56,091 nucleotides of DNA, taken from NCBI GenBank assembly GCA_964611275.1, contig CAZSZS010000117.1, forward strand, positions 1-56,091, read 5' to 3'. This document shows positions 6,475-40,709 of the stretch, in pieces. The notes beneath the pieces are model-generated. The model ran no database searches and was not told where the DNA came from. It saw nothing but the letters and a program-made list of their open reading frames with translations. Numbering within the stretch: position 1 is the stretch's first letter; each line of letters starts with the position of its first letter. The position numbers were made by a program, and so were the translations under genes. The DNA is from an uncultured Eubacteriales bacterium (lineage in GTDB: Bacteria > Acidobacteriota > Aminicenantia > Aminicenantales > Aminicenantaceae).

Positions 6475-6490
6475 GGAGAGGAGATTTAAT

Positions 6491-7036: not shown

Positions 7037-7117
7037 AGCCGGGGACATCAATGAACAGGAAAAGCATCTCTTCTTGAACCTTTGATTCTTGATTGAAACA
7101 AACAGGAGATAGGGATT

Positions 7118-7348: not shown

Positions 7349-7469
7349 CGGTCAGCGATTTAACAGGAACAGGCCAGACCTGATGTGCTGTTTGACTTCT
7401 TATGGCTTATTCGTTATTTTAATCATTATTCTGATTCAGAGTCATGGTTAGAGGAATGGAAAAAGACTG

Positions 7470-9073: not shown

Positions 9074-9110
9074 GACATCAATGGTGTTTTGAAAGCCGCA
9101 GGAAACCGTC

Positions 9111-9953
9111 ATGAAAGTGATAGAAAGCATTGAACAAATGAAGAAGGAAATGCGAAGGCGCCGGGCTGAAGGGGACACCATAGGCTTTGTTCCCACTATG
9201 GGGTATTTACATGAGGGCCATTTAAGCCTTGTCAGGGAAGCGGTTAGCAGGACAGACTGTACCGTGGTGAGCGTGTATGTGAATCCCACTCAGTTCGGTC
9301 CTAATGAAGATTTTGAACAATATCCACGTGACCTGGACAAAGATGCAGGGATACTGGACGAGGAGGGAGCGAGTTACTTGTTCACTCCAAAAGACAGTGA
9401 AATATATCCGGAAGGTTACAAAACATATGTTGAAGTGCATGACCTTCAGGATGTGATGTGCGGTTCATCAAGGCCCGGTCATTTCAGAGGTGTTTGTACT
9501 GTGGTTTTGAAGCTGTTTCATATTGTGAGACCTGATAGCGCCTATTTTGGGCAAAAAGATGCCCAGCAGGCTGTTATTTTGAAAAAAATGGTCAGAGACC
9601 TCAATATGGATGTCGCCATATCAGTCCTTCCCATCGTCAGGGAACAGGACGGGGTGGCATTAAGTTCAAGAAACAGCCTTCTTAGGAAGGAAGAAAGGAA
9701 AGCCGCCAGATGTTTGTACAAAAGCCTTGGATTGGCTAGGGAGGCTCTTAGAAGAGGGAAGAGGAATTCAAGTGAGTTGATCAATTTAATGAAAGATGAG
9801 ATTGCAAAAGAAAAATCAGCAAAAATAGATTATATTGAAATTGTGAATAAAAACACCCTGGAATCAATGATGGAAATAAAGGAAGGAGATACGCTTATTG
9901 CTTTAGCTGTGTTTATAGGAAAAGTAAGATTGATAGATAATATGATTGTTTAG
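9111..9953 (+). CDS. panC: Pantoate-beta-alanine ligase
   Basis: VPTMGYLHEGH, VNPTQF, RPGHFRGV, FGQKDAQQ, ALSSRN, RLIDN. Confidence 0.97.
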   Translation: MKVIESIEQMKKEMRRRRAEGDTIGFVPTMGYLHEGHLSLVREAVSRTDCTVVSVYVNPTQFGPNEDFEQYPRDLDKDAGILDEEGASYLFTPKDSEIYPEGYKTYVEVHDLQDVMCGSSRPGHFRGVCTVVLKLFHIVRPDSAYFGQKDAQQAVILKKMVRDLNMDVAISVLPIVREQDGVALSSRNSLLRKEERKAARCLYKSLGLAREALRRGKRNSSELINLMKDEIAKEKSAKIDYIEIVNKNTLESMMEIKEGDTLIALAVFIGKVRLIDNMIV

Positions 9954-10014
9954 ACATGATCAATCACCATATGGTTTTTATGAAAGACCCAGGTAGATCT
10001 AAGGAGGCACAAGA

Positions 10015-10371
10015 ATGTTAAGGATCATGCTTAAATCCAAGATTCATAATGCAAGGGTCACAGAAAAGAATGTGAATTATCAGGGAAGTATTACTTTATC
10101 CAAAGATTTGATAAGAGAGGCAGAACTTTTTCCTTTTGAACAGGTCCATATATATAATATTTCGAATGGAGAAAGATTTATAACCTATGTGATACAGGAT
10201 GAAAAGAGGCCCGGGGTCGTGGGGCTGAACGGAGCTGCGGCTCATAAAGTCAGTATCGGGGATAAAATCATCATTGCCTCCTTTTCTCTAATGAGTGATG
10301 AAGAGGCAGATTTTTACAGGCCCAAAATACTGATCCTGGATAAAGATAATAAAATCAAAGAGGCCAAATAA
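10015..10371 (+). CDS. panD: Aspartate 1-decarboxylase
   Basis: MLKSKIH, YQG|SIT self-cleavage site, NGERFITY, NGAAA. Confidence 0.95.
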   Translation: MLRIMLKSKIHNARVTEKNVNYQGSITLSKDLIREAELFPFEQVHIYNISNGERFITYVIQDEKRPGVVGLNGAAAHKVSIGDKIIIASFSLMSDEEADFYRPKILILDKDNKIKEAK

Positions 10372-25666: not shown

Positions 25667-26470
25667 ATGACTGTGAACAAGTGGTTCCTTCTAGTTGAGA
25701 ACAAACCCGGGAAGGGTTCGTACAACATGGCTGTTGATGATTTTTTATTCGAGAGTCTGGGCAAGGAGCCGGTCACCTTTATAAGGTTTTACACATGGAA
25801 AAGGCCTACGGTATCTATCGGGTGCTCTCAGGACATCAGAGAGGTGCTGGATCTGGAATTTTGCCAAAAAAACAGGATAGACATCGTACGGAGAATAACC
25901 GGAGGAAAATTGGTGCTTCACCACAGAGAAGTGACGTACAGTGTGTGCTCTTCAGATGTGAATGTTTTTAGCCCTTCTCTGAGCCGGTCATACAGGAAGA
26001 TCTCAGAAGCCCTTATTGCGGGATTAAACAAATTGGATATTCCTGCTTATCTGGCAAGTGATGATAACCTGTCTTATTCCAGAAGCAGCCTTCCCTGTTT
26101 TTCATATCCGGCGAGAAATGAGGTCAAGGTAAAGGATAGGAAAATAGTCGGAAGCGCTCAAAAAAGAGCCGCGCATAAATTCATTCAGCATGGTTCTATC
26201 CCTCTTGAGAATGACGATCGGCTTCTTCAATCTGTGTCCTTGCTGGGTCAAAGAAATGAGGAAATCAGGATGATCACTGCTTCTCAGGCGGCAAACAGAA
26301 AAATTGATTTTTTCTTACTTGTGAAGAACCTCATTTTAGGGGTCCGAGAGTTTTTTGGTGTTGAGCTGTATCCCATGGGATTTTCGAAAAAGCAAAAGGA
26401 AATTATCCGAAGCATACAAAAGAACCGGCACGAAAACACAGATTGGATCTATAACAAAAAGATGCATTGA
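25667..26470 (+). CDS. Lipoate-protein ligase A / LipM-type octanoyltransferase family protein
   Basis: NMAVD, RFYTW, VRRITGGKLVLH, EVTYS, PCF, KIVGSAQ, QHGSI. Confidence 0.88.
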   Translation: MTVNKWFLLVENKPGKGSYNMAVDDFLFESLGKEPVTFIRFYTWKRPTVSIGCSQDIREVLDLEFCQKNRIDIVRRITGGKLVLHHREVTYSVCSSDVNVFSPSLSRSYRKISEALIAGLNKLDIPAYLASDDNLSYSRSSLPCFSYPARNEVKVKDRKIVGSAQKRAAHKFIQHGSIPLENDDRLLQSVSLLGQRNEEIRMITASQAANRKIDFFLLVKNLILGVREFFGVELYPMGFSKKQKEIIRSIQKNRHENTDWIYNKKMH

Positions 26471-28931: not shown

Positions 28932-29441
28932 TTATTTTTTCTCCCGGGATACATAATCCACTATGAACTTGAATCCGATGACAATAATGATGAGCGGCCA
29001 GAAGTCAAAGAGAGTATCATAATCAATGATTTGATAGTTTGCCAATAAAAGGATACCACCCAGTACTATGAGAACGAGACCCCAGAAAACGGAACCTGAT
29101 CTCACAGGTTCAGGGATCTCCTCAACAGCATGGGCGCTGTTTTCTATGTCTTTTCCCAGGAGGCCGAGGTTGATGAGTTTAGCTGTATGTACAGCATCAT
29201 AGATCTGATAAATACAAAATCCTGCCAGGCAGAGTGCTAAAAAGGGTTGCCCTCTTCCTGAGGTCTGAAGAGTAACGAGTCCGGAAAAGGCTAGGAAAAA
29301 GAATATAGCCTTTTTTACCTGCCCATTATAAAGAGCTCCGGTTCCAATAGGGAAAAAGAACGTCAGAATGCCGGCTAGGGCAGGAGATTTAGGTGTTCTT
29401 TCCACTACATATTTTTCTTCTTGTTCTTTTTTGTTATTCAT
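28932..29441 (-). CDS. Membrane protein, TM2-like N-terminus plus DUF5668 C-terminus
   Basis: KSPALAGIL..GTGALYNGQ and WGLVLIVLGGILLLAN..FWPL. Confidence 0.75.
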   Translation of the reverse strand: MNNKKEQEEKYVVERTPKSPALAGILTFFFPIGTGALYNGQVKKAIFFFLAFSGLVTLQTSGRGQPFLALCLAGFCIYQIYDAVHTAKLINLGLLGKDIENSAHAVEEIPEPVRSGSVFWGLVLIVLGGILLLANYQIIDYDTLFDFWPLIIIVIGFKFIVDYVSREKK

Positions 29442-29474
29442 TTAAATTCCTCCGTTTCTAAATTAATCATTAGG

Positions 29475-29966
29475 TCAATCATTTTTCTCCCAAAAAAAGT
29501 CAATGTTTTTTATGGAAAAAAGAATGCTTTCTTTGTATCCGGCCAGAGTATTGGTCAAAGATTCGGCTCTGGCGTATAGTCTTTCTGCTTTACTGTAACC
29601 TATATGAATGTGCTGGTTGATGTATTTATTTATTTGTTCTCTCTCAGGATTCAGTGAATAGAGCGAGATGACTGTGATAAGGACGGTTGCGGCGGCAAGT
29701 AAGGGTTGAAGCGCTGGCTTGAGAAGGAAATGAAAGCCAATTTTGGGTTTTTTAGTCGGTATTTTATAGAGTCTTTCCATAAGGGATGGACTCACATCGA
29801 TTTCCGGGATCTGAGCCAGGGAATCCCTCGCTTCTCTCATAGAAGAAAGAAGGCTCGAACATTTAGGGCATTTTTTTATATGGCCATCGACTAGAGCTTT
29901 TTTCTCCTGGCTCAATTCGTTTTCTAAATAAGGAGAAAGAAGTGTTTCAATTTGCCGGCATTTCAT
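29475..29966 (-). CDS. Zinc-finger (ZAS, zf-HC2) membrane anti-sigma factor
   Basis: MKC..LSPYLENEL...HIKKCPKC (HxxxCxxC), single TM helix; adjacent to ECF sigma. Confidence 0.9.
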   Translation of the reverse strand: MKCRQIETLLSPYLENELSQEKKALVDGHIKKCPKCSSLLSSMREARDSLAQIPEIDVSPSLMERLYKIPTKKPKIGFHFLLKPALQPLLAAATVLITVISLYSLNPEREQINKYINQHIHIGYSKAERLYARAESLTNTLAGYKESILFSIKNIDFFWEKND

Positions 29967-29967
29967 T

Positions 29968-30516
29968 TTAATTCTCCTTTTCCTCCTTTAATATTTTTGC
30001 CAGTTGGATGCGGCCGCGGTTGACCCTTGATTTCACAGTTCCCAGGGGAGAAGCCATTATTTCTGCGATGTCCTCATATTTTTTCCCTTGGATATCTCTG
30101 AGAATAAGAGCTATTCTCACATCAGCATTGAGTGAACTCATTCCTTTCCAGATTATTTTCTGGTTCTGTTTCTTGATGATAGTTTCTTCAGGATCTGTCT
30201 TGCCTTCCGAATCGAGCATGTGTTCATTGAAATCAGTTCGCTGTTTCTTTTCAAGTTTTGTTTTCCTGTAGTGGTCTATCAGGTAGTTGCGTGATAAAGT
30301 GGTGATCCAGGAACTAAAATTCCTGGAACAGTCATATTTATGGAGAGAGTTGTAGACCTTAATGAATATTTCCTGTGTCAGGTCTTCGGAGGTTTCATAC
30401 GAGCCCGTGAATTGATAGGCAAGATTGAATATTCTTTTTGAGTAGGTATCAATGAGCATTTTCCAAGACCTCTGGTTTCCGTCGATGCATTCTCTTATGA
30501 TTTCTTTTATTTTCAC
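29968..30516 (-). CDS. ECF sigma factor
   Basis: EDLTQEIFIKV, FSSWI..RNYLID, YEDIAEI..GTVKSRVNRGR. Confidence 0.93.
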   Translation of the reverse strand: MKIKEIIRECIDGNQRSWKMLIDTYSKRIFNLAYQFTGSYETSEDLTQEIFIKVYNSLHKYDCSRNFSSWITTLSRNYLIDHYRKTKLEKKQRTDFNEHMLDSEGKTDPEETIIKKQNQKIIWKGMSSLNADVRIALILRDIQGKKYEDIAEIMASPLGTVKSRVNRGRIQLAKILKEEKEN

Positions 30517-30530
30517 TTAACACACCTTAA

Positions 30531-30558
30531 TAGACGAAGATTTGGCTTGAAAAGTTCC
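30531..30558 (-). promoter_or_regulatory. ECF-type autoregulatory promoter
   Basis: Minus strand GGAACT-N16-CGTCTA, 14 nt upstream of the sigma GTG. Confidence 0.7.
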
Positions 30559-30581
30559 GCAGCAACCGGTGATGTTTTTTT

Positions 30582-30609
30582 ATTCTATGTGCTTCTACGA
30601 TTATGTCAA
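30582..30609 (-). promoter_or_regulatory. Sigma70-type promoter upstream of the ECF operon
   Basis: Minus strand TTGACA-N16-TAGAAT. Confidence 0.5.
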
Positions 30610-30771
30610 TGCGAAACAGTACGGGATCAAAGGATTCGGCGCAAAAAACGAAAATTCCTTGACTTGCAATAGTTAAATATGACAGGATAATTTTCTAGCC
30701 AAATTAGAGAAATGCAGGAATAAAAGATATGAATTTTTCTTTTCAATAATTTTTCCATATGGGAGGTTTAA

Positions 30772-31818
30772 ATGGAAGGAATTGTAGGCTACGGAGCCTA
30801 TATCCCGAGAAACCGGATTAAAGTGGAAGAGATAGCCAAAGTATGGGGAGCGGATGCCCCAAGCTACAAGAAAGGTCTGATGCTTGAGGAAAAGTCAGTC
30901 CCTTCGCCTGACCAGGACACCATAACCATGTCTGTCGAAGCATCTAAAAATGCACTAAAAAGAGCCGGGATCGATCCCGTTGATATCGGTGCTGTGTATA
31001 TTGGATCTGAGTCGCATCCTTATGCGGTCAAACCAAGCGGCACGGTTCTTGCTGAAGCGCTGGGAGCCACTCCGGAAGTCCATACAGCTGATTTTGAGTT
31101 TGCATGTAAGGCCGGGACCGAAGGTATGTTTGTGGCATTGAATCTCGTTAAGGCGGGCGTAGTTAAATACGGTCTTGGAGTCGGAGCAGATACTTCTCAA
31201 GGGGCCCCTGGTGATGCTTTGGAATACTCAGCAGCTGCAGGCGCTGCTGCCTTTATTTTTGGGAAAGACAAAGTGGTCGCAGAAGTCCTCGATACCTATG
31301 CTTATATGACGGATACACCTGATTTTTGGAGAAGGGAATACGAATACTACCCCCAGCACGGAGGCCGGTTCACTGGGGAACCTGCCTATTTTAAACATGT
31401 TATTGGAGCGGCAAAAGGAATTATGAATAAGGCGGGAATGCAGGCCGGTGATTTCAATTATGTGATATTCCACCAGCCCAACGGCAAATTTCCCTTTAAG
31501 GCAGGTAAAATTCTGGGTTTTTCCAGGCAGCAGATAGAACCAGGATGGCTGGTGAACAAGCTCGGGAACACGTATTCAGGTTCTTCTCCTTTGGGATTGA
31601 CAGCTACACTTGATATAGCAAAACCAGGTGATCATGTTCTATTGGTCTCATACGGTTCCGGCGCGGGAAGCGATGCGTTCATTCTAAAGGTCACTCCGAG
31701 GATCGATGAAGTGAGGGATCTAGCCCCTTTGACCAGAGAGATCCTGGACCATAACAAGAAATATCTTGAATACGGGGAATACGCAAAATTCAGAGAAAAA
31801 ATAAGGAAAGCAGAGTAG
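30772..31818 (+). CDS. Archaeal-type hydroxymethylglutaryl-CoA synthase
   Basis: GIVGYGAYIP, GSESHPYAVKP (Glu), DFEFACKAGT (catalytic Cys), DTPDFWRR, FHQPNGKFP (His), GNTYSGS, SYGSGAGSD. Confidence 0.9.
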   Translation: MEGIVGYGAYIPRNRIKVEEIAKVWGADAPSYKKGLMLEEKSVPSPDQDTITMSVEASKNALKRAGIDPVDIGAVYIGSESHPYAVKPSGTVLAEALGATPEVHTADFEFACKAGTEGMFVALNLVKAGVVKYGLGVGADTSQGAPGDALEYSAAAGAAAFIFGKDKVVAEVLDTYAYMTDTPDFWRREYEYYPQHGGRFTGEPAYFKHVIGAAKGIMNKAGMQAGDFNYVIFHQPNGKFPFKAGKILGFSRQQIEPGWLVNKLGNTYSGSSPLGLTATLDIAKPGDHVLLVSYGSGAGSDAFILKVTPRIDEVRDLAPLTREILDHNKKYLEYGEYAKFREKIRKAE

Positions 31819-31827
31819 GAGGATAAA

Positions 31828-32982
31828 ATGAGAGAAGTGGCGGTCATAGGAATCGGAATGACAAAATGGGGAGAGCTTTGGAATAAATCCCTGAGGGATA
31901 TTTATGTAGAAACAGCGTTGATGGCCATAGATGATGCAGCGGTCGAACATATTGACTCCATGTATATTGGGTCCATGTCATCGGGGATTTTCGTAGGACA
32001 GGAACATATTGCCTCCCTTCTTGCGGATTATTTGGGCTGCGCTCCTGTACCTTCAACAAGAGTGGAGACAGCCTGTGCCTCCGGGGGACTCGCGTTAAGA
32101 CTCGGATTTATGGAAGTAGCCAGCGGGATGAGTGATATCGTTCTGGTGAGCGGGGTCGAGAAGATGACAGATGTCGGAGGGGATGAGGCCACCTATGCGC
32201 TGGGTACTGCAGCTGACCAGGAGTATGAATGCTACCACGGGATCACGTTTCCGGGGCTTTATGCCCTGATGGCGGTGGCACATATGGATAAGTACGGAAC
32301 CACGAGAAAACAGCTGGCAGAGGTGGCGGTCAAGAACCACAGAAACGGCTCAAAGAATCCTCTTGCCCAGTTTCCTTTTGAAGTGACCGTTGATGATGTG
32401 TTGAATTCAGTCAAGGTAGCAGACCCGCTGAGGATACTGGACTGCTCTCCTATAACCGATGGAGCTGCAGCAGCCATAATATGCCCGATTGAACTCGCTA
32501 AGAAACTGAACAAACCCGTTGTTAAGATAACAGGAAGCGGTCATGCTACAGATGCCATAGCTATCAGCCAAAGAAAAGATATGACCTGGTTAGAGTCCAC
32601 CTATAAGGCAGGAAAAAGCGCGTATGAAATGGCTGGGAAAACTCCCGGTGATATTGATGTGTTTGAAGTCCATGATTGTTTCACTATCGCAGAGCTCTGC
32701 GTTATGGAGGCTCTGGGCGTGGTTGATAAGGGGAAAGCAGGGGAAGCTGTGGAAAGGGGCAGGACCGCAGTGGAAGGAGATATACCTGTTAATGCAAGCG
32801 GCGGTTTGAAATCAAAGGGACATCCGGTAGGAGCAACAGGAATTGCCCAGGTTGTGGAGATCGTCAAACAATTGAGAGAAGAATCAGGCGAAAGACAGGT
32901 CAAGGGAGCGCGCTTCGGACTCACTCAGAATATGGGTGGCAGTGGTGCGAGTACGGTCGTTCATATTTTTGAGAGAGAATAA
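31828..32982 (+). CDS. Archaeal-type (SCP2-like) acetoacetyl-CoA thiolase
   Basis: [10 protein letters not shown] (Cys), [37 protein letters not shown]. Confidence 0.9.
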
Positions 32983-32996
32983 GAAAGGAGAAAATA

Positions 32997-33392
32997 ATGT
33001 CAACACCTTCAAGATATTGGAGAGAGATACCTCAAAGGTATAGACTGGAAGCCAATAGTTGTACACAGTGCAGACAGAAGTTCTTTCCGCCGAGGCTTGT
33101 CTGCCCGGAATGCGGCTCTCGCGATTTGGTGAAAACAAAGATTGCGGAAAAAGGAAAAGTCATAAGCTATACAATAATTAGAGTCCCTCCCAGTCAGTTC
33201 AAAGACCAGGCTCCCTATGCTGTCGGAGTCGTGGAGCTGGATGACGGGGTCAAACTTATGGGGCAGATCGTTGATTGTGATTTTGAGGATTTGAAGCTGG
33301 GAAAAAGGGTCAAGATCGAGTTCAGAAAGCTTTTTAAAAATGGACATTCAGGGATACTGTGTTATGGATATAAGTTTGTTCCTGATTCATAA
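32997..33392 (+). CDS. DUF35 Zn-ribbon/OB-fold scaffold protein
   Basis: WREIPQRYRL, CTQC..FPPR..CPEC, GKVISYT, APY, YGYKF. Confidence 0.92.
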   Translation: MSTPSRYWREIPQRYRLEANSCTQCRQKFFPPRLVCPECGSRDLVKTKIAEKGKVISYTIIRVPPSQFKDQAPYAVGVVELDDGVKLMGQIVDCDFEDLKLGKRVKIEFRKLFKNGHSGILCYGYKFVPDS

Positions 33393-33459
33393 GAAAGGTT
33401 TAACAAAGCATTTAAAAAAGCCGTATCGATTATGATTTGATACACAAGGGGATAAGGGT

Positions 33460-35067
33460 ATGTTTAGAATCAAAAGCAAAATAGACACAAAAAGTCCTGA
33501 GTACAAAAAAAATTTAGAATACATGAAAAAACAGGTTGATGAGTACAGGAAAAATTTTACCCTAATAAAAAAAGGAGGCCCAGAGAAATACAGAAAGATT
33601 CACAAATCAAGAGGTAAATTATTAGCAAGAGAGCGGCTTGAAAGACTTTTTGACCGCAACACTCCTTTTTTGGAATTAAGCCCCATGGCCGCATATGGGA
33701 TGTATGATGACCAGGCCCCGGGAGCCAGCATGGTGACAGGGGTGGGAGTGGTCCATGGGCGGGAAGTGCTTGTGATTGCCAATGATGCGACTGTAAAAGG
33801 CGGAACCTATTTTCCCATGACCATAAAAAAGCATATAAGAGCCCAGGAAGTGGCTATGGAAAACCGTCTTCCCTGTATTTATTTGGTCGATTCCGGCGGA
33901 ATATTTCTTCCTCATCAGGCAGGGACTTTCCCGGATAAGGAGCACTTTGGACGCATTTTTTATAACCAAGCCCGGCTCTCTGCAATGGGGATCCCCCAGA
34001 TCTCCATCGTTATGGGTTCCTGTACCGCGGGGGGAGCTTATGTACCGGCCATGAGTGATGAGACAGTGATCGTCAAAGAACAGGGGACCATTTTTATAGG
34101 AGGACCCCCTCTGGTCAAAGCAGCCACTGGAGAAGAGGTGACGGATGAAGAGCTTGGAGGGGCAGATGTGCACTGCCGGATATCAGGGGTTTCTGATTAT
34201 TTTGCCCAGGATGACGAACATGCATTAAAGATTGCCAGAAATATTGTTGAGACACTCGATCCTTCAAAAAAATTCCCGCTTGACCGCAAGGAACCTGAGG
34301 AACCTTATTATGACCCAAATGAATTAATGGGGATCATTCCCAGGGATTTAAAAAAATCCTTTGATACAAGAGAGGTCATCGCCAGGATCGTCGACGGAAG
34401 CCGGTTTCAGGAATTTAAAGAAAAATACGGGATCACTCTTGTGTGCGGATTTGCGAGGATCATGGGTTATCCGGTGGGAATTGTTGCGAACAACGGAGTC
34501 CTTTTTTCTGAAAGTTCTTTGAAGGGTTCCCATTTCATAACCCTGTGTGCGTTGAGAAAGATCCCTTTGGTTTTCCTTCAAAACATAACCGGATTTATTG
34601 TTGGAAAACAGTATGAGCATGGAGGAATTGCCAAAGACGGAGCCAAGATGGTTCATGCGGTTGCTAATGCTGATGTGCCTAAATTTACCGTGATCATAGG
34701 TGGTTCCTATGGTGCGGGGAATTACGCTATGTGCGGAAGAGCTTATGACCCCCGTATTTTGTGGATGTGGCCGAACGCCAGAATCAGTGTGATGGGTGGA
34801 GAACAGGCAGCCAATGTACTGCTTACAGTGAAGGAAAAGCATTTTGAGAAAACGGGAAAAAAGATGACTGAAGCAGAAAAAAACAAGATCAAGCAGCCCA
34901 TTTTAGAGAAATACGAGCATGAGGGCAGCCCTTATTACAGTACGGCACGGTTATGGGATGATGGGATCATCGAGCCTTTAGATACCAGAGAAGCGCTGGC
35001 TCTTGGAATTTCCATGAGCTTGAACGAAACGATTCCTGACTACAAAGTGGGAATCTTCAGGATGTAA
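33460..35067 (+). CDS. 3-methylcrotonyl-CoA carboxylase carboxyltransferase (beta) subunit, LiuB/MccB-like
   Basis: [68 protein letters not shown]. Confidence 0.9.
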
Positions 35068-35068
35068 C

Positions 35069-35884
35069 ATGGTAGAAAAAGAATACGAAACAATCATCTG
35101 TAGAAAAGAAAAGCAGAAATTGTCTCTGACCTTAAACCGTCCAAAAGTACACAATGCCTTTAATTCAACCATGATTTCTGAGATGCTGGATGTCTTGAAA
35201 GCAATAAAAGATGATGCCTCTGTCAGAGTGATTGTGTTGACTGGAAAAGGGAAGTCATTTTGTGCGGGCGCGGATTTAAACTGGATGAGGGAGATCATCC
35301 ATTATTCTTATGACCAGAATCTTAAGGAATCGTTAGAAATAGCAGAACTTCTTCACACCATATACTCAGTTCCAAAACCTACTATAGCCCGCGTGAACGG
35401 TACTGCCATAGGAGGGGGGGTCGGCTTTCTTTCCGCCTGCGATATTGTTGTCGCGGCATCCACAGCCAAATTTGGTTTGAGTGAAGTGAAAATCGGGCTT
35501 ATTCCTGCTGCCATCTCTCCGTATGTAGTCAAAAGAATAGGGGAGTGCAAGGCTAGAGAGTATTTTCTGACAGGAGAGAGGATTTCAGCTGAGAAAGGCG
35601 AAAAAATCGGACTTGTGAACCGTGTTTGTTCTTATGAAAACCTTGATTCTGAGATAGAAAATATGGTCGAACGTCTTTTGTCTTCCGGCCCGGAGGCTAT
35701 GGCCAGCTGCAAAGAACTTCTTTTCAAGGTGCCTCAGATCTCACTGGAAGAGGCCAAGGAATATACAGCCAGAATGATCGCTAATCTCAGGGTCAGCGAT
35801 GAAGGGCAGGAAGGCATGACAGCTTTCTTGGAAAAGCGAAAGCCTTCTTGGATGTTTGGAAAAAAGGGAAAAAAGAATGTTTAA
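35069..35884 (+). CDS. Enoyl-CoA hydratase, methylglutaconyl-CoA hydratase (LiuC-like)
   Basis: LNRPKVHNAF, FCAGADLNWM, GGGVG, LSEVKIGLIPAAISPYV; sits between the MCC subunits as in liu operons. Confidence 0.85.
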   Translation: MVEKEYETIICRKEKQKLSLTLNRPKVHNAFNSTMISEMLDVLKAIKDDASVRVIVLTGKGKSFCAGADLNWMREIIHYSYDQNLKESLEIAELLHTIYSVPKPTIARVNGTAIGGGVGFLSACDIVVAASTAKFGLSEVKIGLIPAAISPYVVKRIGECKAREYFLTGERISAEKGEKIGLVNRVCSYENLDSEIENMVERLLSSGPEAMASCKELLFKVPQISLEEAKEYTARMIANLRVSDEGQEGMTAFLEKRKPSWMFGKKGKKNV

Positions 35885-37394
35885 AAAGATACTGATCGCA
35901 AACCGTGGAGAAATTGCGGTTCGAATCATCAGGGCCTGTCAGGAAATGGGTATTGCAACCGTGGCTGTTTATTCAGAAGCAGATAGAAAAAGTCTGCATG
36001 TACAGCTTGCAGACGAAGCAGTATGCATAGGACCGGCTCAAGCCGTTGACAGCTACCTTGATAGTGACAATGTTATCCATGCGGCCAAGGAGAAAAAAGC
36101 CGAGGCGATCCATCCCGGTTATGGTTTTCTTGCTGAGAATCCGTCTTTTTCCTTAAGGTGTGAAAAGGAAGGGATTATTTTTATAGGACCGAATTCAAGA
36201 GCCATGGATTTGGTGGGAGATAAGGTGCGTTCAAGACAGACCGTGGAAAAAGCAGGCGTCCCTATTATTCCCGGTATGAAATGTGTATTGGAAAATGTTT
36301 CTGAATATGAAAAAGAAGCCCGTACCATCGGCTATCCTATAATGATCAAAGCATCTGCCGGAGGAGGGGGCAAAGGCATGCGCATTATCCACTCTCATGA
36401 AAAGCTGAAAGCCGGACTTGAAGCCGGCATGAGAGAGGCGAAATCTGCCTTTGGTGACGAATCTGTCTATCTGGAAAAGTGCATTCAGGAGCCCCGCCAC
36501 GTCGAATTTCAGATACTGGCAGATAACTATGGGAACATTGTGCATCTTTTTGAGCGCGAATGCTCGATCCAGAGAAGGCATCAAAAAATCATTGAAGAAT
36601 CTCCATCTCCAGCTCTTGATCAAGACTTAAGGAATAAAATGGGGGATGTGGCCAAAAAAGTCATTCAAGCGACCGGATACAACAATGCCGGGACAGTTGA
36701 ATTCCTTCTTGATAAGGATAGAAATTTTTATTTCCTGGAAGTCAATGCAAGACTGCAGGTAGAACACCCTGTCACTGAACTGATCACGGGTTTGGATATT
36801 GTCCAGCATCAAATTTTGATTGCAGCCGGGGAAAAGCTCAAAATAAGACAGGACTCACTGAGTCAGAATGGGCATGCGATCGAGTGCAGGATATATGCTG
36901 AGGACCCGGAAAACAATTTTCTCCCTTCGTCAGGAAAAATATTGTTTTTAAACGAACCTTCAGGACCGGGCATCAGGCTCGACAGCGGTATCTACAGTGG
37001 GAGTGAAGTCCCCATTTACTATGATCCCATATTATCAAAGTTGATCGTCTGGGCGGAAAACAGAGGATTGGCCTGTAAAAGAATGATCCAGGCACTGGAC
37101 CATTATGTGATTTTAGGTGTTAAAACAAGCATTTCTTTTTTAAAAGAAGTCATCTCGAGCGCCAGGTTCAGAAGTGGAGATACAACCACTGGTTTTATTG
37201 AAAAACAGTTCAAAAATGGCTTTATCCTGAAGAAAGATGATAAAAACAGAGAAATCTCCCTTCTGGCGGCTGCTTTTTTGGAGCAAAGCAAAAAGTATGG
37301 TTCAGGAATAGGAAAAAAGGAACAGGGACAAGGCTCTCCATGGCAGACTTTGGGGAGATGGAGGCTTGGGAGGAGTGAGGAAAGTGGAACATGA
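35877..37394 (+). CDS. Biotin carboxylase subunit (MCC alpha N-terminal part)
   Basis: KILIANRGEIA, IHPGYGFLAEN, GGGGKGMR, RECSIQRRHQK, EVNARLQVEHPVTE, ECRIYAEDP; ATG at 35877. Confidence 0.93.
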   Translation: MFKKILIANRGEIAVRIIRACQEMGIATVAVYSEADRKSLHVQLADEAVCIGPAQAVDSYLDSDNVIHAAKEKKAEAIHPGYGFLAENPSFSLRCEKEGIIFIGPNSRAMDLVGDKVRSRQTVEKAGVPIIPGMKCVLENVSEYEKEARTIGYPIMIKASAGGGGKGMRIIHSHEKLKAGLEAGMREAKSAFGDESVYLEKCIQEPRHVEFQILADNYGNIVHLFERECSIQRRHQKIIEESPSPALDQDLRNKMGDVAKKVIQATGYNNAGTVEFLLDKDRNFYFLEVNARLQVEHPVTELITGLDIVQHQILIAAGEKLKIRQDSLSQNGHAIECRIYAEDPENNFLPSSGKILFLNEPSGPGIRLDSGIYSGSEVPIYYDPILSKLIVWAENRGLACKRMIQALDHYVILGVKTSISFLKEVISSARFRSGDTTTGFIEKQFKNGFILKKDDKNREISLLAAAFLEQSKKYGSGIGKKEQGQGSPWQTLGRWRLGRSEESGT

Positions 37395-37890
37395 ATTCGT
37401 TGTCGACAATAAGCTGTTGAAAATATTTCTTGAAAAAAAAGGCGATCAGTATGTTGTTGGTGTTGGTGATGATATATATACAGCAGACATCAAAAACTTA
37501 TCTCCCCGTATCATTTCCATCAAGATAGAAGATAAGGTCTACAGAGTATTTATTGCGCGAAGCAATGATGGATTTTACGTGCAGTGCAGAGGAGATCAGT
37601 ATTTCATCAAAGATTCAGACCAGGATGATAGTGAAGTGCAGGGCAGTGAAGAGAGGTCAAGAGAGGATATGTTGAATATCAAGTCTACCATGCCCGGGAA
37701 GGTCATAAAAATTGAAGTTGCCGAGAAACAGGAGGTAAGAGCGGGGCAGACTCTGGCTATTGTAGAAGCAATGAAAATGGAGAATGAGATCAAATGTTCG
37801 TTGAAAGGATTTGTGAAAAAGATATTTGCTTCCGAAGGCGACCTTGTTGATTCTGACAATCCTATAATGGAGCTAGAAGAAAAAAGTTAA
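37384..37890 (+). CDS. Biotin carboxyl carrier protein with N-terminal beta domain
   Basis: MPGKV...EAMKMENEI biotinylation motif; GTG at 37384 preceded by GAGGAGTGAGG. Confidence 0.9.
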   Translation: MEHEFVVDNKLLKIFLEKKGDQYVVGVGDDIYTADIKNLSPRIISIKIEDKVYRVFIARSNDGFYVQCRGDQYFIKDSDQDDSEVQGSEERSREDMLNIKSTMPGKVIKIEVAEKQEVRAGQTLAIVEAMKMENEIKCSLKGFVKKIFASEGDLVDSDNPIMELEEKS

Positions 37891-37920: not shown

Positions 37921-38098
37921 ACTTACATCAGGCTGGAAAGTTCTTCAGCCCGCTGATTTTCCCCAGCGAGTAAAATCAGCTTATTCCTCGGCTCGCTCTC
38001 CTCTGTGAGGAACCATGCCAGCTCACCTCCGGATGACTTCAGAACCAGCCAGCCAGCCTGAAAGTCAGGAGCACAATCCATATCTGAATTTCTGAAGG
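37921..38098. repeat. Repeat B copy 2 (37921-38065, inverted, 26-bp insertion) plus the end of element A (38068-38098)
   Basis: Matches the reverse complement of 10658-10776 (e.g. GTTCTTCAGCCCGCTGATTTT, TTATTCCTCGGCTCGCTC, CCTCCGGATGACTTCAGAACCAGCCAGCC); GGAGCACAATCCATATCTGAATTTC matches the reverse complement of 10421-10445 with 2 mismatches. Confidence 0.85.
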
Positions 38099-38207: not shown

Positions 38208-38810
38208 ATGAATGATAAGAGAATGGACGATAAAAATTTAATCTTGTTGGTTCAACAAGGCGATGAAGAAGCTTTTGAAGAAATCATGTACAAATACAAG
38301 AATAAAATCGTTAATTTTCTCTACAATATGACAGGAGATTATGAAAAAGCTGTGGAGCTGTCTCAGGAAACATTCATAAGGGTTTATTATAAAGCTAAAA
38401 AGTACAAACCAAAGGCTCCTTTTTCTTCATGGCTTTTTACAATTGCATCGAATTTGGCAAAAACAGAGTTAAAGAAGATGAATAAACGAAGGAGTATTCC
38501 TTTGGATAATGTGTACAACAACAACCAGCAGGGATTATCAGAAACGGATGACTTTGAAATGAAAGAAAAAGCAAAAAGAATCAGAAGAGCGCTCAACACT
38601 CTTCATCAGCGCTACAGGATTCCGCTTGTTCTTAAAGATATAGAGGGTTTTTCTCAAGAGGAGATTGCTGTTATGTTAAAAAAGCCTGTCGGGACGATAA
38701 AAGCCCAGATAAGCAGGGGAAGACAATACCTTAAACAGGAAATAATAAAAAATGAATTTAATATGAACTTTAAAACAGAAGCTCAGGAGTTTGAAAATGA
38801 GAGAGCTTGA
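38208..38810 (+). CDS. ECF sigma factor
   Basis: GDEEAF, ELSQETFIRV, FSSWLFTIASN, EIA..LKKPVGTIKAQISRGR; start may be ATG 38223. Confidence 0.93.
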   Translation: MNDKRMDDKNLILLVQQGDEEAFEEIMYKYKNKIVNFLYNMTGDYEKAVELSQETFIRVYYKAKKYKPKAPFSSWLFTIASNLAKTELKKMNKRRSIPLDNVYNNNQQGLSETDDFEMKEKAKRIRRALNTLHQRYRIPLVLKDIEGFSQEEIAVMLKKPVGTIKAQISRGRQYLKQEIIKNEFNMNFKTEAQEFENERA

Positions 38811-39195
38811 TTTTTTAAAAAATTACGAGAGAGTGGAGGCTCCGGAATATTTCGAAAAAGGAGTCATGACCCTTTTATCACAGAGAAAAAAGAAAAAAGT
38901 AAAGAACCGCATCTTCCGTCTTTCATTGGCAGGGGCCGCATGTACCCTGGGTATTATGCTTTTGGTTTGCAACTTTTTTTTCTTTAATGGAAAAAGCATA
39001 CAGGAATTTACTGAAACCGATACGGAAAGAATTCAGGCCATGGAGGATTATTTCACTATTGGCCATGAAAGCAGAATCCCCATTACAGAAGCTGTTGATT
39101 ATTCGGGAGAGATCAAAAAGCAAACAAATCAGCCCTTAACTGTATATATATTAGAGCAGGTCTCAGAAAGCACCGATGCTAAAATCAAATTTTAG
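38797..39195 (+). CDS. Putative single-pass anti-sigma factor
   Basis: Overlaps the sigma stop; short cytoplasmic N-terminus, basic patch, TM helix, short periplasmic part. Confidence 0.65.
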   Translation: MRELDFLKNYERVEAPEYFEKGVMTLLSQRKKKKVKNRIFRLSLAGAACTLGIMLLVCNFFFFNGKSIQEFTETDTERIQAMEDYFTIGHESRIPITEAVDYSGEIKKQTNQPLTVYILEQVSESTDAKIKF

Positions 39196-39209
39196 GAGGT
39201 CTGTTTAAA

Positions 39210-40709
39210 ATGAACATCAATACAAAAAAATTACTAACCATGGTTTTTGTTGGAACAGTGACTGTATTTTTTACGTGCAGCGCAACCGGATATGGCCTGG
39301 ATAGCGCTATAGACGTCAAAGAATTAACTAAAAAAGTCGCCCCTTCGGTTGTTAGGGTGGAAGCTGTAAACGGTATGAGAAAAGTAGCAACCGGTGTGGT
39401 CATAGGGAAAGACGGATATATTGTCACGACCGCATTGGTTTCTCCTATCGGAACGAATATTTTTGTGAGAACTTCAAGCGGAGAGAAGTTCGAAGCAGAG
39501 TTTATTGGAATGGACCCGGTCACTCATATTGCTTTGGTTAAAGCTGAAGGCAGGAACTGGGATGAGATCGAATGGGGAGAAAAAGAGGAAGTTGATACAG
39601 GCTCATGGATCGGAGTCATCTCAATATCTCCTGAAGATTCTACGGCTGTAACAAGCGGTATAGTGAGTTCCGTAAGCCGGGATAGAATCCGTTTAAATGT
39701 GTGTTTGATGCCTGGTTCGAGCGGAAGTCCTGTTTTGAATGAAAAAGGCAGGATGGTCGGTTTAATCAGAGGTGTTTATTCGGGTCAGACAATGTTGGAT
39801 GTTATTAGGGATGATGATCCCAGAAGGAATATAGTCGGAGGAAGTCTTTCATTAAGCATTGTTGGAACGCCTGTCTCCGGCCTGGCCGTAGCTGTTCCGA
39901 TTGATGTTGTGAGGAAGGTGGCTACGGAGATCAGAGAAAAGGGGAAAGTCCAGAGAGGGTGGCTTGGAGTATCCATAATAGAAAATAGTAATGAAGAGAT
40001 AGAGGTCTATGACGTGGATGTAGACAGCCCTGCGGAAAAAGAAGGAATAAGAAAAGGAGATATTATTGTAGAATTTGACGGCGAAAAAGTAACCGGCTCC
40101 AATATACTGGCGCATGACATCATGATGCACAGGCCTGGTGATAAAGTGGAAATAGTGGTCAAAAGAGACAATAAAACAAAAAACTTTAACGTCGAGTTGA
40201 GCGAGTACTCGGAAAAAAATATAATGGCGGAATTCAAGGAAAAATATCCTCTTCTCTTTTCCCCCGATAAGTTCAGATTGGAAAAAATTACCAGACCTGA
40301 TGGTTGGTACTTTTCGCTCGTTGAAAAAGAAAGAAATCATATTGGTGTTTATCTCGAAGAGATCAACAGGGACCTTTCTGAGTATTTTGGAGTGAACAAG
40401 GGGACAGGTTTGCTGGTCACAAAAGTCGTCAAAGATGGGCCTGCAGAGAGAGCAGGGCTGCAGGTAGGTGATGTTATTATAAAGTCTGATGGAAAAAGAA
40501 TAGAAAAAATGAAAGAGCTGGAAGAAATAATCCAGAGAAAAAAGGAAGAGGAGAAGATCAGTCTTGAAGTTGTTCGGAATGCAAAAGTGAAAAAGATCGA
40601 GGTTGTTGTGGAGCGGGAAGAAAAAGATTTTCCTTTTTTGTCCGAAAACCTGGAAGTGAGCATCATAGAGAGGCCTTCCAGAGAAAAATCGAACAGTATC
40701 GGTGCATAG
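39210..40709 (+). CDS. HtrA/DegP-like protein with trypsin-fold domain and two PDZ domains, altered catalytic triad
   Basis: PSVVRV, ATGVVIGKDGYIVTTALV, GMDPVTHIALVK, PGSSGSP, RGWLGV, SPAEKEGIRKGD, GPAERAGLQVGD. Confidence 0.88.
   Translation: MNINTKKLLTMVFVGTVTVFFTCSATGYGLDSAIDVKELTKKVAPSVVRVEAVNGMRKVATGVVIGKDGYIVTTALVSPIGTNIFVRTSSGEKFEAEFIGMDPVTHIALVKAEGRNWDEIEWGEKEEVDTGSWIGVISISPEDSTAVTSGIVSSVSRDRIRLNVCLMPGSSGSPVLNEKGRMVGLIRGVYSGQTMLDVIRDDDPRRNIVGGSLSLSIVGTPVSGLAVAVPIDVVRKVATEIREKGKVQRGWLGVSIIENSNEEIEVYDVDVDSPAEKEGIRKGDIIVEFDGEKVTGSNILAHDIMMHRPGDKVEIVVKRDNKTKNFNVELSEYSEKNIMAEFKEKYPLLFSPDKFRLEKITRPDGWYFSLVEKERNHIGVYLEEINRDLSEYFGVNKGTGLLVTKVVKDGPAERAGLQVGDVIIKSDGKRIEKMKELEEIIQRKKEEEKISLEVVRNAKVKKIEVVVEREEKDFPFLSENLEVSIIERPSREKSNSIGA

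Follow-up and report, generated by a model that had tools for sequence, protein, structure and literature searches.

The liuABCDE genes of Pseudomonas form a leucine/isovalerate utilisation cluster. The isovalerate cluster of Desulfococcus multivorans carries Mcc, EchA2 and HmgL, according to PMC5109826, and the AIB route of Myxococcus xanthus (MvaS, LiuC, AibA/AibB, AibC and AibR) is described as leading from HMG-CoA to isovaleryl-CoA (PMC5389471). HMG-CoA synthase (HMGS) also forms an archaeal complex with a thiolase and a DUF35 protein (6ESQ/6ET9), the 2018 report of which is cited in PMC12960953 and PMC13126070. PhlABC and SmaATase are presented as bacterial HMGS/ACAT/DUF35-like Friedel-Crafts acylases that no longer synthesise HMG-CoA (PMC12960953).

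Here, we analysed a stretch of 56,091 nucleotides (the window) from the MAG of an uncultured sediment bacterium (Candidatus Aminicenantes; completeness 89.8%). In this window, a triad of HMGS, thiolase and DUF35 genes precedes genes for a 3-methylcrotonyl-CoA carboxylase (MCC) and a hydratase. An earlier note on this DNA held that the combination looked undescribed, and our literature search found no description of the combined block in print. Judged from the genes, we consider it about an even call that the block is one operon for leucine/isovalerate breakdown without HMG-CoA lyase, in which the synthase-thiolase complex would run in reverse.

The seven genes and their closest relatives

The seven plus-strand ORFs encode HMGS, thiolase, DUF35 protein, MCC beta (MCCB), crotonase, biotin carboxylase (BC) and biotin carboxyl carrier protein (BCCP), in this order (Table 1). 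Intergenic gaps of 9, 14, 67 and 1 bp separate them from 5' to 3', and the last two junctions overlap; the earlier description of seven co-oriented genes with gaps of 67 bp or less matches the coordinates of the ORF list exactly. The BC ORF (35856-37394) opens at a TTG at 35856 and its N-terminus reads MFKKILIANRGEIA; with the likely translation start, the ATG at 35877, the overlap with the hydratase gene is 8 bp. Upstream of HMGS, a consensus scan returned a single weak sigma-70-like site (30664-30691), and the scanned region held 11 consensus sites compared to 12.5 expected from shuffles, i.e. no excess. The same type of scan found no terminator-like site in the 67-bp gap (33393-33459). The hairpin behind BCCP, a consensus match whose tail CGCTGATTTT is a partial T run only, likely marks the end of the transcription unit.

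Table 1 Features of the seven-gene block and its flanks (positions in the window).
Feature	Position	Strand	Basis
Probable operon promoter region	30517..30771	+	255-bp intergenic region between HMGS and a divergent ECF sigma factor gene; predicted from the ORF map
Archaeal-type HMG-CoA synthase (HMGS), 348 aa	30772..31818	+	TIGR00748 551 bits, cut-off 353; NF003274 540 bits
SCP2-type acetoacetyl-CoA thiolase, 384 aa	31828..32982	+	NF004720 547 bits, cut-off 420
DUF35 protein, 131 aa	32997..33392	+	PF12172 (zf-ChsH2) and PF01796 (OB_ChsH2_C): zinc ribbon and OB fold
3-methylcrotonyl-CoA carboxylase carboxyltransferase (beta), 535 aa	33460..35067	+	PF01039 521 bits
Crotonase-family hydratase, 271 aa	35069..35884	+	PF00378 224 bits; candidate 3-methylglutaconyl-CoA hydratase (LiuC/AtuE type)
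Biotin carboxylase (ATP-grasp)	35877..37394	+	TIGR00514 636 bits, cut-off 626.5; PF00289, PF02786, PF02785
Separate biotin carboxyl carrier protein (BCCP), at most 174 aa	37366..37890	+	PF00364 60 bits; EAMKME biotinylation motif
Terminator-like hairpin	37931..37950	+	41 bp 3' of BCCP stop; 7-bp stem, 4 GC pairs

The three adjacent triad genes have the three chains of the archaeal complex as their best solved relatives, with 472 bits for HMGS (chain I, over residues 3-345), 373 bits for the thiolase and 111 bits for the DUF35 protein, where PhlB and ChsH2 homologues reach 52-67 bits. HMGS scores above the cut-off of the archaeal equivalog model, and the motifs GSESHPY, EFACKAG and FHQPNGKF, in which we place the catalytic Glu, Cys and His, are identical to those of the archaeal chain. 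The thiolase reaches 555 bits against NF053570, under the cut-off of 600, and in the archaeal complex DUF35 is the subunit that serves as scaffold. Unlike the archaeal complex, the window triad, which is known here from its genes, belongs to a bacterium lacking HMG-CoA reductase (HMGR) and mevalonate kinase, is joined in one operon to MCC and hydratase genes, and has a proposed flux opposite to the archaeal one. PhlABC and SmaATase, as characterised in their report (PMC12960953), share the three-protein architecture and the setting of MEP-route bacteria. They are nevertheless much less closely related (their HMGS-like chain gives 203-211 bits, archaeal HMGS 472), whereas the window HMGS keeps the motifs common to archaeal HMGS intact. 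The locus resembles AIB, as outlined in PMC5389471, in the genetic link of HMG-CoA synthase to the 3-methylglutaconyl-CoA branch and not to mevalonate alone. It differs in its archaeal-type synthase with thiolase and DUF35 (122 bits against the bacterial model TIGR01835, cut-off 360), in a complete ATP-dependent MCC in place of AibA/AibB, and in the proposed direction, which is the opposite.

The carboxyltransferase (CT) scored 748 bits against human MCC beta, 745 against P. aeruginosa MCC beta and 476 against geranyl-CoA carboxylase beta, and less than 300 against the PCC and transcarboxylase chains in the PDB. Its top single PDB match (9tps, 760 bits) was entered there as the beta subunit of a propionyl-CoA carboxylase; the MCC beta call denotes the best match among chains named for a substrate-specific carboxylase. 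The crotonase stays under the cut-off of every specific model, the nearest in NCBIfam being PRK07468 (282 bits, cut-off 350) and PRK05674, a gamma-carboxygeranoyl-CoA hydratase (274 bits, cut-off 426), and its 60 best PDB matches include no solved methylglutaconyl-CoA hydratase. Its assignment rests on position, since proteins of 43-48% identity hold the same slot in canonical liu clusters. Within the same phylum, such clusters (Acidobacteriota G212, G288, G143 and G260) read MCCB-hydratase-BC/BCCP-lyase. They are collinear and homologous to the window genes, with 65-67% identity for MCCB and 49-51% for BC in addition to that of the hydratase. In contrast to them, neither the window cluster nor its genome contains HMG-CoA lyase, and the 5' end is taken by the triad. 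BC and BCCP are encoded separately and not as a single alpha subunit, and the window copy has no dehydrogenase.

Fate of HMG-CoA in the genome and its relatives

The window had been noted to lack both lyase and isovaleryl-CoA dehydrogenase; correspondingly, genome-wide searches for lyase and acyl-CoA dehydrogenase gave no match on its contig (C117) and Pfam scans of the window ORFs gave none. For the dehydrogenase this does not extend to the whole genome, which encodes three acyl-CoA dehydrogenases elsewhere, one of them 61-63% identical to those inside such blocks in other bacteria. They are nearest to the butyryl-CoA-dehydrogenase type (376 bits for 7szv and 362 for 5ol2, compared to about 233 for isovaleryl-CoA dehydrogenase), and enzymes of this type work reductively in many fermenters. 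The genome further encodes four POR-family 2-oxoacid:ferredoxin oxidoreductases and EtfAB, which adjoins plsX-fabG-fabF. ETF:quinone oxidoreductase (PF05187) was not found in it, and two marginal matches (about 24 bits, not above the cut-off; G016 and G032) occurred among the 41 order genomes.

Searches for liuE and hmgR gave nothing in the source genome and in nearly all of its relatives, among them three closed genomes, G025, G027 and G039. The HMGL-like family PF00682 (lyase/LeuA) is missing from the source genome and the three closed ones and present in 7 of the 41 order genomes, and CitE-like PF03328 had no match in the source genome, G002 and G039. Neither the source genome nor the closed relatives yielded LeuA or IlvD. 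For HMGR (PF00368), the source genome, the three closed genomes and the class-level families sampled gave no match, and the only two among the order genomes were weak (53-54 bits), leaving 39 of 41 without any. In the source genome, GHMP kinases are limited to IspE and sugar-kinase-like proteins, with a top score of 82 bits against the mevalonate kinase model (cut-off 163), and IspE together with IspH shows the MEP route. These results speak against the first of two options raised in the earlier note, in which HMG-CoA would collect carbon from both acetyl-CoA and leucine for mevalonate-derived isoprenoids. Some eukaryotes and haloarchaea are known to pass leucine carbon on to mevalonate, and HMGR does occur in some block carriers, namely in three of the 22 of the phylum sample and, among genomes from other phyla, in two of five (both Zixibacteria); there the block could feed mevalonate. 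For the source genome this option is close to refuted, and as an account of the block we regard it as highly improbable.

As no enzyme known to use HMG-CoA was found in the genome, the triad complex is probably reversed and would split HMG-CoA to three acetyl-CoA. That the triad stands in for the lyase and consumes HMG-CoA is the reading we rank first, on the basis of gene content and with evenly balanced confidence; the earlier note had not weighed it. In this scheme, leucine would be converted to isovaleryl-CoA by a transaminase and one of the four oxidoreductases, or isovaleryl-CoA would arise from free isovalerate, and an acyl-CoA dehydrogenase encoded outside the block would yield 3-methylcrotonyl-CoA. 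The block MCC (CT, BC and BCCP) would carboxylate this at the expense of ATP to 3-methylglutaconyl-CoA, and the crotonase would hydrate the product to HMG-CoA. Finally, the reversed HMGS/thiolase/DUF35 complex would convert HMG-CoA and two CoA to three acetyl-CoA, with acetoacetyl-CoA as channelled intermediate. We infer here which way the flux runs, that the synthase step is reversible, that the three proteins form a complex, and which dehydrogenase takes part.

Alternatively, both halves may make HMG-CoA for an unrecognised sink, which could be a reductase or lyase of a new family, a hydrolase, or a secondary metabolite with a 3-methylglutaryl or HMG group. HMG-CoA formation is the proven direction of both halves, the MAG is incomplete, and 3-methylglutaryl groups exist in natural products, as reported in PMC9636800. 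However, the closed genomes likewise have neither reductase nor lyase, the 80 loci surveyed below show no recurrent neighbour of the block that would be a candidate sink, and an HMGS identity of 68-87% across phyla suggests core metabolism and not a lineage-specific product. Taken together, we consider such a sink very unlikely.

Conservation and neighbours of the block

Orthologues of HMGS and of MCCB were each present in 31 of the 41 order genomes, both in 30 and neither in 9. In all 30 genomes with both, the two genes lie on one contig and one strand, with MCCB 1.6-2.0 kb downstream. The linkage of the two halves, which the earlier note had proposed to follow by a synteny survey, is thus borne out by the same order in these relatives and in several phyla, which supports a functional link between them, and the seven-gene arrangement is not a product of chance. 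Among 80 loci from Aminicenantes, Zixibacteria, Ignavibacteria, Coatesbacteria, Glassbacteria, Eisenbacteria, Elusimicrobiota and others, 42 had a same-strand MCCB-clade CT, five LiuC and BC with another CT, three LiuC only and 11 neither, while 19 were too short to tell. The ATP-grasp BC was present in every block of this survey whose DNA extends to that position.

An acyl-CoA dehydrogenase gene lies near the block in 14 of the 80 loci, and in two closed genomes, G039 and G027, it directly follows BCCP. Other neighbours are BCKDH E1 with Lpd (L065), a B12 acyl-CoA mutase (L028 and L031), and thiolase with 3-hydroxyacyl-CoA dehydrogenase (L029, L060 and L081; in L037, the thiolase alone was scanned). 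In G027 and G039, a GctAB-like CoA-transferase pair is divergent from HMGS and scores 239/215 bits to 1POI compared to 102/76 to AibA/B. As judged by these assignments, the block neighbours in other lineages are of catabolic types, and those scanned included no fatty-acid-synthesis genes and no AibC-type reductase.

In a phylum sample of 301 genomes, 96 carried an MCCB-clade CT, with HMGS within 12 kb in 20 and on another contig in two. In these 22 genomes, no lyase lies within 12 kb and none anywhere reaches 300 bits. A lyase-like gene of 246-300 bits occurs elsewhere in 7 of about 20-22 block genomes, which counts against the lyase-free reading. By comparison, 50 of the 71 MCCB genomes without HMGS have a lyase, within 12 kb in 41 and with at least 300 bits elsewhere in nine; as related genomes are not independent, all these counts overstate the support. 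Triad and lyase are mutually exclusive in their distribution, an exclusion that would also be expected if the route ran anabolically.

Direction of the route

The second option of the earlier note was such an anabolic route, with the biotin enzyme acting as decarboxylase. Here, the triad would make HMG-CoA from three acetyl-CoA, the crotonase would dehydrate it, the biotin enzyme would decarboxylate the product, possibly regaining ATP, and acyl-CoA dehydrogenase with ETF would yield isovaleryl-CoA as iso-fatty acid primer or, once a 2-oxoacid:ferredoxin oxidoreductase has carboxylated it reductively, leucine. The forward reaction is the sole proven direction of the archaeal complex, and the Bcd-type dehydrogenases, the missing ETF-QO and the position of EtfAB are in line with this route. 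With no LeuA or IlvD detected, the cell would benefit from another supply of leucine carbon, and AIB, according to PMC5389471, shows that conversion of HMG-CoA to isovaleryl-CoA is real. However, block-less order genomes also have no LeuA, so that the block does not track leucine auxotrophy, and with IlvD missing too, valine and isoleucine have to be imported in any case.

The retained BC also argues against this route, as it fits carboxylation better than plain decarboxylation. The decarboxylating biotin enzymes known to us have no ATP-grasp BC subunit, and cellular ATP/ADP ratios would strongly favour carboxylation. Myxococcus uses AibA/AibB to decarboxylate 3-methylglutaconyl-CoA, as stated in PMC5389471, which suggests that its own MCC is not used for this step; the AibA/AibB type (PF01144) has no match in the source genome, and the pairs in G027 and G039 are GctAB-like, not AibAB-like. 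Together with the catabolic-cluster gene order and the neighbours in other lineages (BCKDH, CoA-transferases, mutases and beta-oxidation genes), this disfavours the option, which we consider unlikely.

The block might also work as a reversible hub, catabolic with plentiful leucine or isovalerate and anabolic under a shortage of branched primers. For the triad, the net reaction is expected to be close to equilibrium, as the exergonic HMG-CoA synthase step offsets the +25 kJ/mol of the thiolase step, hydratase and ETF-linked dehydrogenase are reversible enzymes, and one gene set would suit both directions. An ATP-dependent carboxylase is, however, probably one-way in cells, a second, decarboxylating enzyme was not found in the source genome and no direction switch was seen. 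We therefore regard this hub as distinctly unlikely.

The last step of HMG-CoA synthase is a thioester hydrolysis, and to our knowledge its net reversal has never been demonstrated in a cell, which speaks against lyase-free breakdown by this complex. In Desulfurella and Thermosulfidibacter, citrate synthase runs reversed as part of the reversed oxidative TCA cycle; it too is a Claisen-condensing enzyme whose forward step ends in thioester hydrolysis and which is reversed in vivo upon product removal. This offers a precedent in principle, though an analogy only, as enzyme family and pathway differ. Thiolytic cleavage of acetoacetyl-CoA is given as favourable by about 25 kJ/mol in PMC13126070, and in a channelling complex it could draw the synthase step in its unfavourable reverse direction. 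As the lyase route frees acetoacetate, the reversed triad would keep one more thioester and may thereby yield up to one more ATP per leucine.

Composition of the seven-gene block

The earlier note had described seven co-oriented genes, encoding an HMG-CoA synthase (HMGS), a thiolase and a DUF35 protein (together the triad) and then an MCC half made up of the carboxyltransferase MCCB, a crotonase-family hydratase, a biotin carboxylase (BC) and a biotin carrier (BCCP), and an ORF map bore this arrangement out (see table). The thiolase and DUF35 genes adjoin that of HMGS with gaps of 9 and 14 bp, 67 bp separate DUF35 from MCCB, and the remaining genes follow after 1 bp and two short overlaps. A terminator-like hairpin lies 3' of BCCP, and the terminator scan found no such site in the 67-bp gap. 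The promoter scan was uninformative (11 sigma-70-like sites, 12.5 expected). The run search listed no RNA sequencing run matching the window; half or more of the words sampled from the stretch occurred in four DNA runs, which come from salt marsh and sediment metagenomes.

The closest PDB relatives of HMGS, thiolase and DUF35 were three chains of 6ESQ/6ET9, with 472 (HMGS, chain I of 6ESQ), 373 and 111 bits, respectively. These entries represent the thiolase/HMGCS/DUF35 complex of Methanothermococcus thermolithotrophicus. The triad proteins appear to be homologues of this archaeal complex and, by their likeness to 6ESQ, may form a joint channelling complex. The triad architecture is shared with the PhlABC/SmaATase acylases, but these are distant and have lost HMG-CoA synthesis, as stated in an excerpt of PMC12960953.

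The carboxyltransferase scored 745-748 bits against MCC beta subunits, 476 against the geranyl-CoA carboxylase beta subunit and below 300 against PCC; its top single match was 9tps (760 bits), a chain deposited as the beta subunit of propionyl-CoA carboxylase. By sequence it is an MCC beta subunit of the kind found in liu-type clusters, with predicted specificity. The biotin carboxylase and biotin carrier of such clusters are present as two separate genes rather than as one alpha subunit. The crotonase was nearest to AtuE/LiuC-type models, yet stayed under the cut-offs of PRK07468 and PRK05674, and its 60 best PDB matches included no methylglutaconyl-CoA hydratase of solved structure. Its hydratase role is therefore assigned from gene position.

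An ECF sigma module lies on either side of the operon. In six Aminicenantes loci (L014, L015, L017, L020, L023 and L024), BCCP is likewise followed by three ORFs similar in length to those of the downstream module, compared by size only. Upstream of the operon is a lipoate/biotin-ligase-family gene, and another member of its Pfam family interrupts the triad at locus L043.

Coordinates and assignments of features in the window and in compared loci and genomes
Feature	Location	Strand	Assignment or remark
panB, panC, panD	window 8204-10371	+	clustered
Lipoate/biotin-ligase-family gene	window 25667-26470	+	4 kb upstream of operon
Upstream ECF sigma module	window 28932-30516	-	divergent; sigma factor, zf-HC2 anti-sigma factor, LiaF-like membrane protein
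Seven-gene block	window 30772-37890	+	seven genes, in the order of the next seven lines
HMGS		+	archaeal equivalog family; TIGR00748, 551 bits (cut-off 353)
Thiolase		+	SCP2-type; NF004720, 547 bits (cut-off 420)
DUF35 protein		+	zinc ribbon and OB fold; PF12172, PF01796
Carboxyltransferase (MCCB)		+	535 aa
Hydratase (crotonase)		+	
BC		+	TIGR00514, 636 bits (cut-off 626.5)
BCCP		+	PF00364; EAMKME motif present
Terminator-like hairpin	window 37931-37950		
Downstream ECF sigma module	window 38208-40709	+	sigma factor, 134-aa protein without family, HtrA protease with two PDZ domains
Lipoate/biotin-ligase-family gene	L043 2594-3376		between HMGS and thiolase
Acyl-CoA mutase large subunit	L031 6720-8789		with B12-binding subunit
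Acyl-CoA mutase large subunit	L028 17229-18896		
AtuA-family protein	L058 9692-11518		adjoins triad
AtuA-family protein	L073 8489-9853		adjoins triad
AtuA-family protein	L082 9966-11801		between DUF35 and MCCB
CoA-transferase pair	G039:C1, L114 5910-7648	-	divergent from HMGS; 319 and 260 aa
CoA-transferase pair	G027:C1, L115 ~6014-7635	-	divergent from HMGS
plsX, fabG, fabF, EtfB, EtfA	G000:C20, L109 2037-7558	+	EtfB and EtfA directly 3' of the other three
Reductase match (Zixibacteria)	G042:C1 888864-889979		open frame of 822 aa
Reductase match (Zixibacteria)	G045:C1 343893-345008		open frame of 782 aa

Linkage of triad and MCC half across genomes

The two halves, for which the earlier note had also considered separate locations in relatives with liuA and liuE elsewhere, proved to be linked. 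HMGS orthologues (76-97% identity) occur in 31 of 41 genomes of the order and MCCB likewise in 31, both genes being missing in nine. In all 30 genomes with both, they share contig and strand, MCCB starting 1.6-2.0 kb after the HMGS stop; in the two one-sided genomes (G010 and G031) contig ends cut the locus. Beyond the order, scanned with one genome per species, HMGS was found at 68-87% identity in Aminicenantes, Zixibacteria, Ignavibacteria, Eisenbacteria, Coatesbacteria, Glassbacteria, Planctomycetota, Myxococcia, Elusimicrobiota and others, and by estimate it is encoded on about 4000 stretches stored in the genome collection. Among 80 kept loci, 42 carry a carboxyltransferase of the MCCB clade on the HMGS strand (40 downstream, 2 upstream), five a hydratase and biotin carboxylase with a different carboxyltransferase (33-36% identical), and three the hydratase alone; 19 are uninformative, having less than 6 kb of downstream DNA, and 11 have neither gene despite at least 6 kb.

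From the phylum, 301 genomes were sampled evenly and searched with HMGS, MCCB, a lyase model and a reductase model, and the places of the matches were cross-tabulated; as related genomes are not independent, the counts are a pattern rather than a statistic. An MCCB-clade carboxyltransferase (at least 55% identity) is present in 96 genomes, 20 of which have HMGS within 12 kb of MCCB, two on another contig and three only an HMGS of 50-54% identity. None of the 22 genomes with MCCB and HMGS has an HMG-CoA lyase within 12 kb, or one of at least 300 bits anywhere, and seven have a lyase-like gene of 246-300 bits on another contig. Among the 71 genomes with MCCB and without HMGS, by comparison, the lyase lies within 12 kb of MCCB in 41 (40 of 70 without G069, which is flagged unpublished); nine have a lyase of at least 300 bits elsewhere, seven a low-scoring one only, and 14 none.

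Canonical clusters (G212, G288, G143 and G260) run MCCB-hydratase-BC/BCCP and then directly into the lyase, and their MCCBs are 65-67% identical to the one here. Gene order and identity thus make the MCC half a homologue of ordinary catabolic liu clusters, which share this half but include a lyase; the anaerobic isovalerate cluster of Desulfococcus multivorans likewise contains HmgL, according to part of PMC5109826. As judged by sequence, the block is distinguished from canonical liu clusters by a triad at its 5' end where these have a lyase at the 3' end.

Two further clades occur in the phylum, one of HMGS, at 50-54% identity and in 14 of the 301 genomes, and one of the carboxyltransferase, at 46-51% identity and common in families f33 and f40. 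In f33, an HMGS of 65-68% and a carboxyltransferase of 47-51% identity lie on different contigs.

Sources and consumers of HMG-CoA in the host genome

The window is contig C117, one of 218 in a 3.16-Mb MAG (G000) that is 89.8% complete and whose nearest titled relatives are Candidatus Aminicenantes. As the MAG is incomplete, key searches were extended to 40 related genomes of the order, among which G025, G027 and G039 are single-contig genomes.

The archaeal complex consists of the same proteins as the triad but differs in pathway context, as it supplies HMG-CoA to the reductase of the mevalonate route. A genome-wide profile search found no HMG-CoA reductase (PF00368) in G000, and two weak matches among the 41 genomes of the order. 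No true mevalonate kinase was found in G000, the top score of 82 bits (cut-off 163) coming from a sugar-kinase-like protein; IspE and IspH of the MEP route are present. The first option of the earlier note, that leucine and acetyl-CoA are both funnelled into HMG-CoA for isoprenoids, requires the reductase, and we consider it extremely improbable. In the phylum sample, the reductase is present in 6 of 52 genomes with HMGS and 3 of 22 with the block; in other phyla, it is present in 2 of 5 genomes that carry block or triad. HMGS is uncoupled from mevalonate in the majority of carriers, and without exception in the class-level relatives sampled. In two Zixibacteria genomes, the open frames with the reductase matches are about twice as long as usual, which suggests a fusion.

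The HMGL-like family (PF00682) had no match in G000, thus neither HMG-CoA lyase nor LeuA, in a search that was positive in 14 of 14 known genomes as control. It matched in 7 of 41 genomes of the order and in none of the three closed ones, and the specific lyase model NF004283 also gave no match in G000. Following a case from M. tuberculosis, where a CitE-like lyase acts on HMG-CoA (described in part of PMC6689899), we checked CitE-like proteins (PF03328) as hidden lyases; none was found in G000 or its relatives G002 and G039, ruling this candidate out there, while G025 and G027 have one.

Leucine biosynthesis as the purpose of the block ranks low: IlvD is also missing, and block-less relatives lack LeuA as well. 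With IlvD found neither in G000 nor in four relatives, the 2-oxoisovalerate for PanB, encoded in the panBCD cluster of the window, must derive from valine or else be made by reductive carboxylation of isobutyryl-CoA.

Direction of the route

The reading that fits most observations, and which we hold to be evenly balanced between right and wrong, is a lyase-free catabolism of leucine or isovalerate with the triad running in reverse. ATP-driven MCC and the hydratase would push carbon into HMG-CoA, which the HMGS/thiolase/DUF35 complex would convert to three acetyl-CoA. In the condensing direction, the thiolase step costs about 25 kJ/mol, as given in an excerpt of PMC13126070, and is hence favourable in cleavage. 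Within a channelling complex, thiolase cleavage could draw the synthase step into reverse. Compared to the lyase, which releases free acetoacetate, the triad route would save one thioester and so yield up to one more ATP. A precedent in principle is the citrate synthase that runs backwards in the reversed oxidative TCA cycle; for HMG-CoA synthase, we know of no demonstrated reversal.

In the more far-reaching version proposed below, isovaleryl-CoA would be oxidized by a confurcating Bcd/Etf-type reaction driven by ferredoxin that is reduced at the 2-oxoisocaproate step. G000 encodes four POR-family 2-oxoacid:ferredoxin oxidoreductases and EtfAB. The window contains no isovaleryl-CoA dehydrogenase (IVD) or other acyl-CoA dehydrogenase (ACAD); three ACADs are encoded elsewhere in G000, none of which passes a specific model. 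One of them (contig C213) is 61-63% identical to the block-linked ACADs of loci L059, L066 and L085 and, by PDB comparison, nearer to butyryl-CoA dehydrogenase (Bcd) than to IVD. ACADs are present in 14 of the 80 loci, among others directly 5' of HMGS (L031, L043), directly 3' of BCCP (L027, L039) or within the block (L059, L066, L077, L079, L085), and one follows BCCP immediately in the closed genomes G039 and G027. Against the catabolic reading, the dehydrogenases are Bcd-like, the hydratase scores under the specific cut-offs, seven block genomes have the low-scoring lyase-like gene, and ETF-QO (PF05187) was not found in G000, with only two marginal matches (G016, G032) among the 41 genomes of the order.

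The mutual exclusion of triad and lyase is also expected of an anabolic block. Such a block, the second option of the earlier note, would run from HMG-CoA to methylcrotonyl-CoA via reversed MCC and supply iso-branched lipid primers. It has a real precedent in the Myxococcus AIB pathway, which employs MvaS, LiuC, AibA/AibB and AibC and decarboxylates 3-methylglutaconyl-CoA with AibA/AibB, as far as described in part of PMC5389471; Myxococcus probably does not use its own MCC for this step. The pathway shares intermediates with the block but differs in the decarboxylation and reduction enzymes. CoA-transferase family PF01144, matched in 8 of 41 genomes of the order, has no member in G000, which rules out an AibAB-like decarboxylase there, and the block retains an ATP-grasp subunit that a decarboxylase would not need. 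Among the scanned block neighbours we saw no fatty-acid-synthesis genes, no AibC-like reductase and no AibR. We consider the anabolic direction unlikely. A hub working in both directions appears improbable, and passage of HMG-CoA to an unknown sink very improbable.

Returning to the catabolic direction, we tentatively propose, at somewhat less than even confidence, that the triad acts as an 'HMG-CoA thiolase', a reversed channelled Claisen machine that replaces the lyase, together with ferredoxin-driven isovaleryl-CoA oxidation, and that this is widespread in uncultured sediment phyla. New would be a cluster for leucine catabolism whose last enzyme has been replaced by a non-orthologous one; literature searches, largely confined to main texts outside the subscription journals, turned up no account of the block or of HMG-CoA synthase working in reverse. 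If true, many uncultured anaerobic phyla would end the breakdown of leucine and isovalerate unlike the textbook route and conserve more energy, with roughly doubled ATP from these substrates in energy-starved anaerobes. It would join reversed citrate synthase as a second natural example of a condensing synthase that works in cleavage, explain why an 'archaeal' HMGS is kept at 68-87% identity in bacteria with MEP isoprenoids, and revise reconstructions in which such genomes are credited with 'incomplete leucine degradation' or a 'partial mevalonate pathway'. The hypothesis is directly testable with three recombinant proteins.

Further genes recur beside the block in other loci. BCKDH E1 and lipoamide dehydrogenase lie beside it in L065, and a canonical thiolase with 3-hydroxyacyl-CoA dehydrogenase in L029, L060 and L081 (in L037 the scan covered the thiolase alone). 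The large subunit of a B12-dependent acyl-CoA mutase of the methylmalonyl-CoA-mutase family, found in L031 and L028, could be an isobutyryl- or pivalyl/isovaleryl-CoA mutase. The two-subunit CoA-transferases of G039 and G027, absent from G000, are GctAB-like: the G039 pair scored 239 and 215 bits against glutaconate CoA-transferase (1POI), and the pair only 102 and 76 bits against the AibA/AibB decarboxylase. Such a pair may serve to activate isovalerate or some other free acid; G039 also has a gene resembling butyryl-CoA:acetate CoA-transferase close by. Proteins of the AtuA family (acyclic terpene utilisation, function unknown) adjoin the triad in three loci.

For the ACADs, EtfAB and oxidoreductases of G000, the gene surroundings were informative in two cases. 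The position of EtfB and EtfA behind plsX, fabG and fabF is an unusual site for an electron-transfer flavoprotein, and FabH is encoded one gene beyond a 2-oxoacid oxidoreductase, on the opposite strand.
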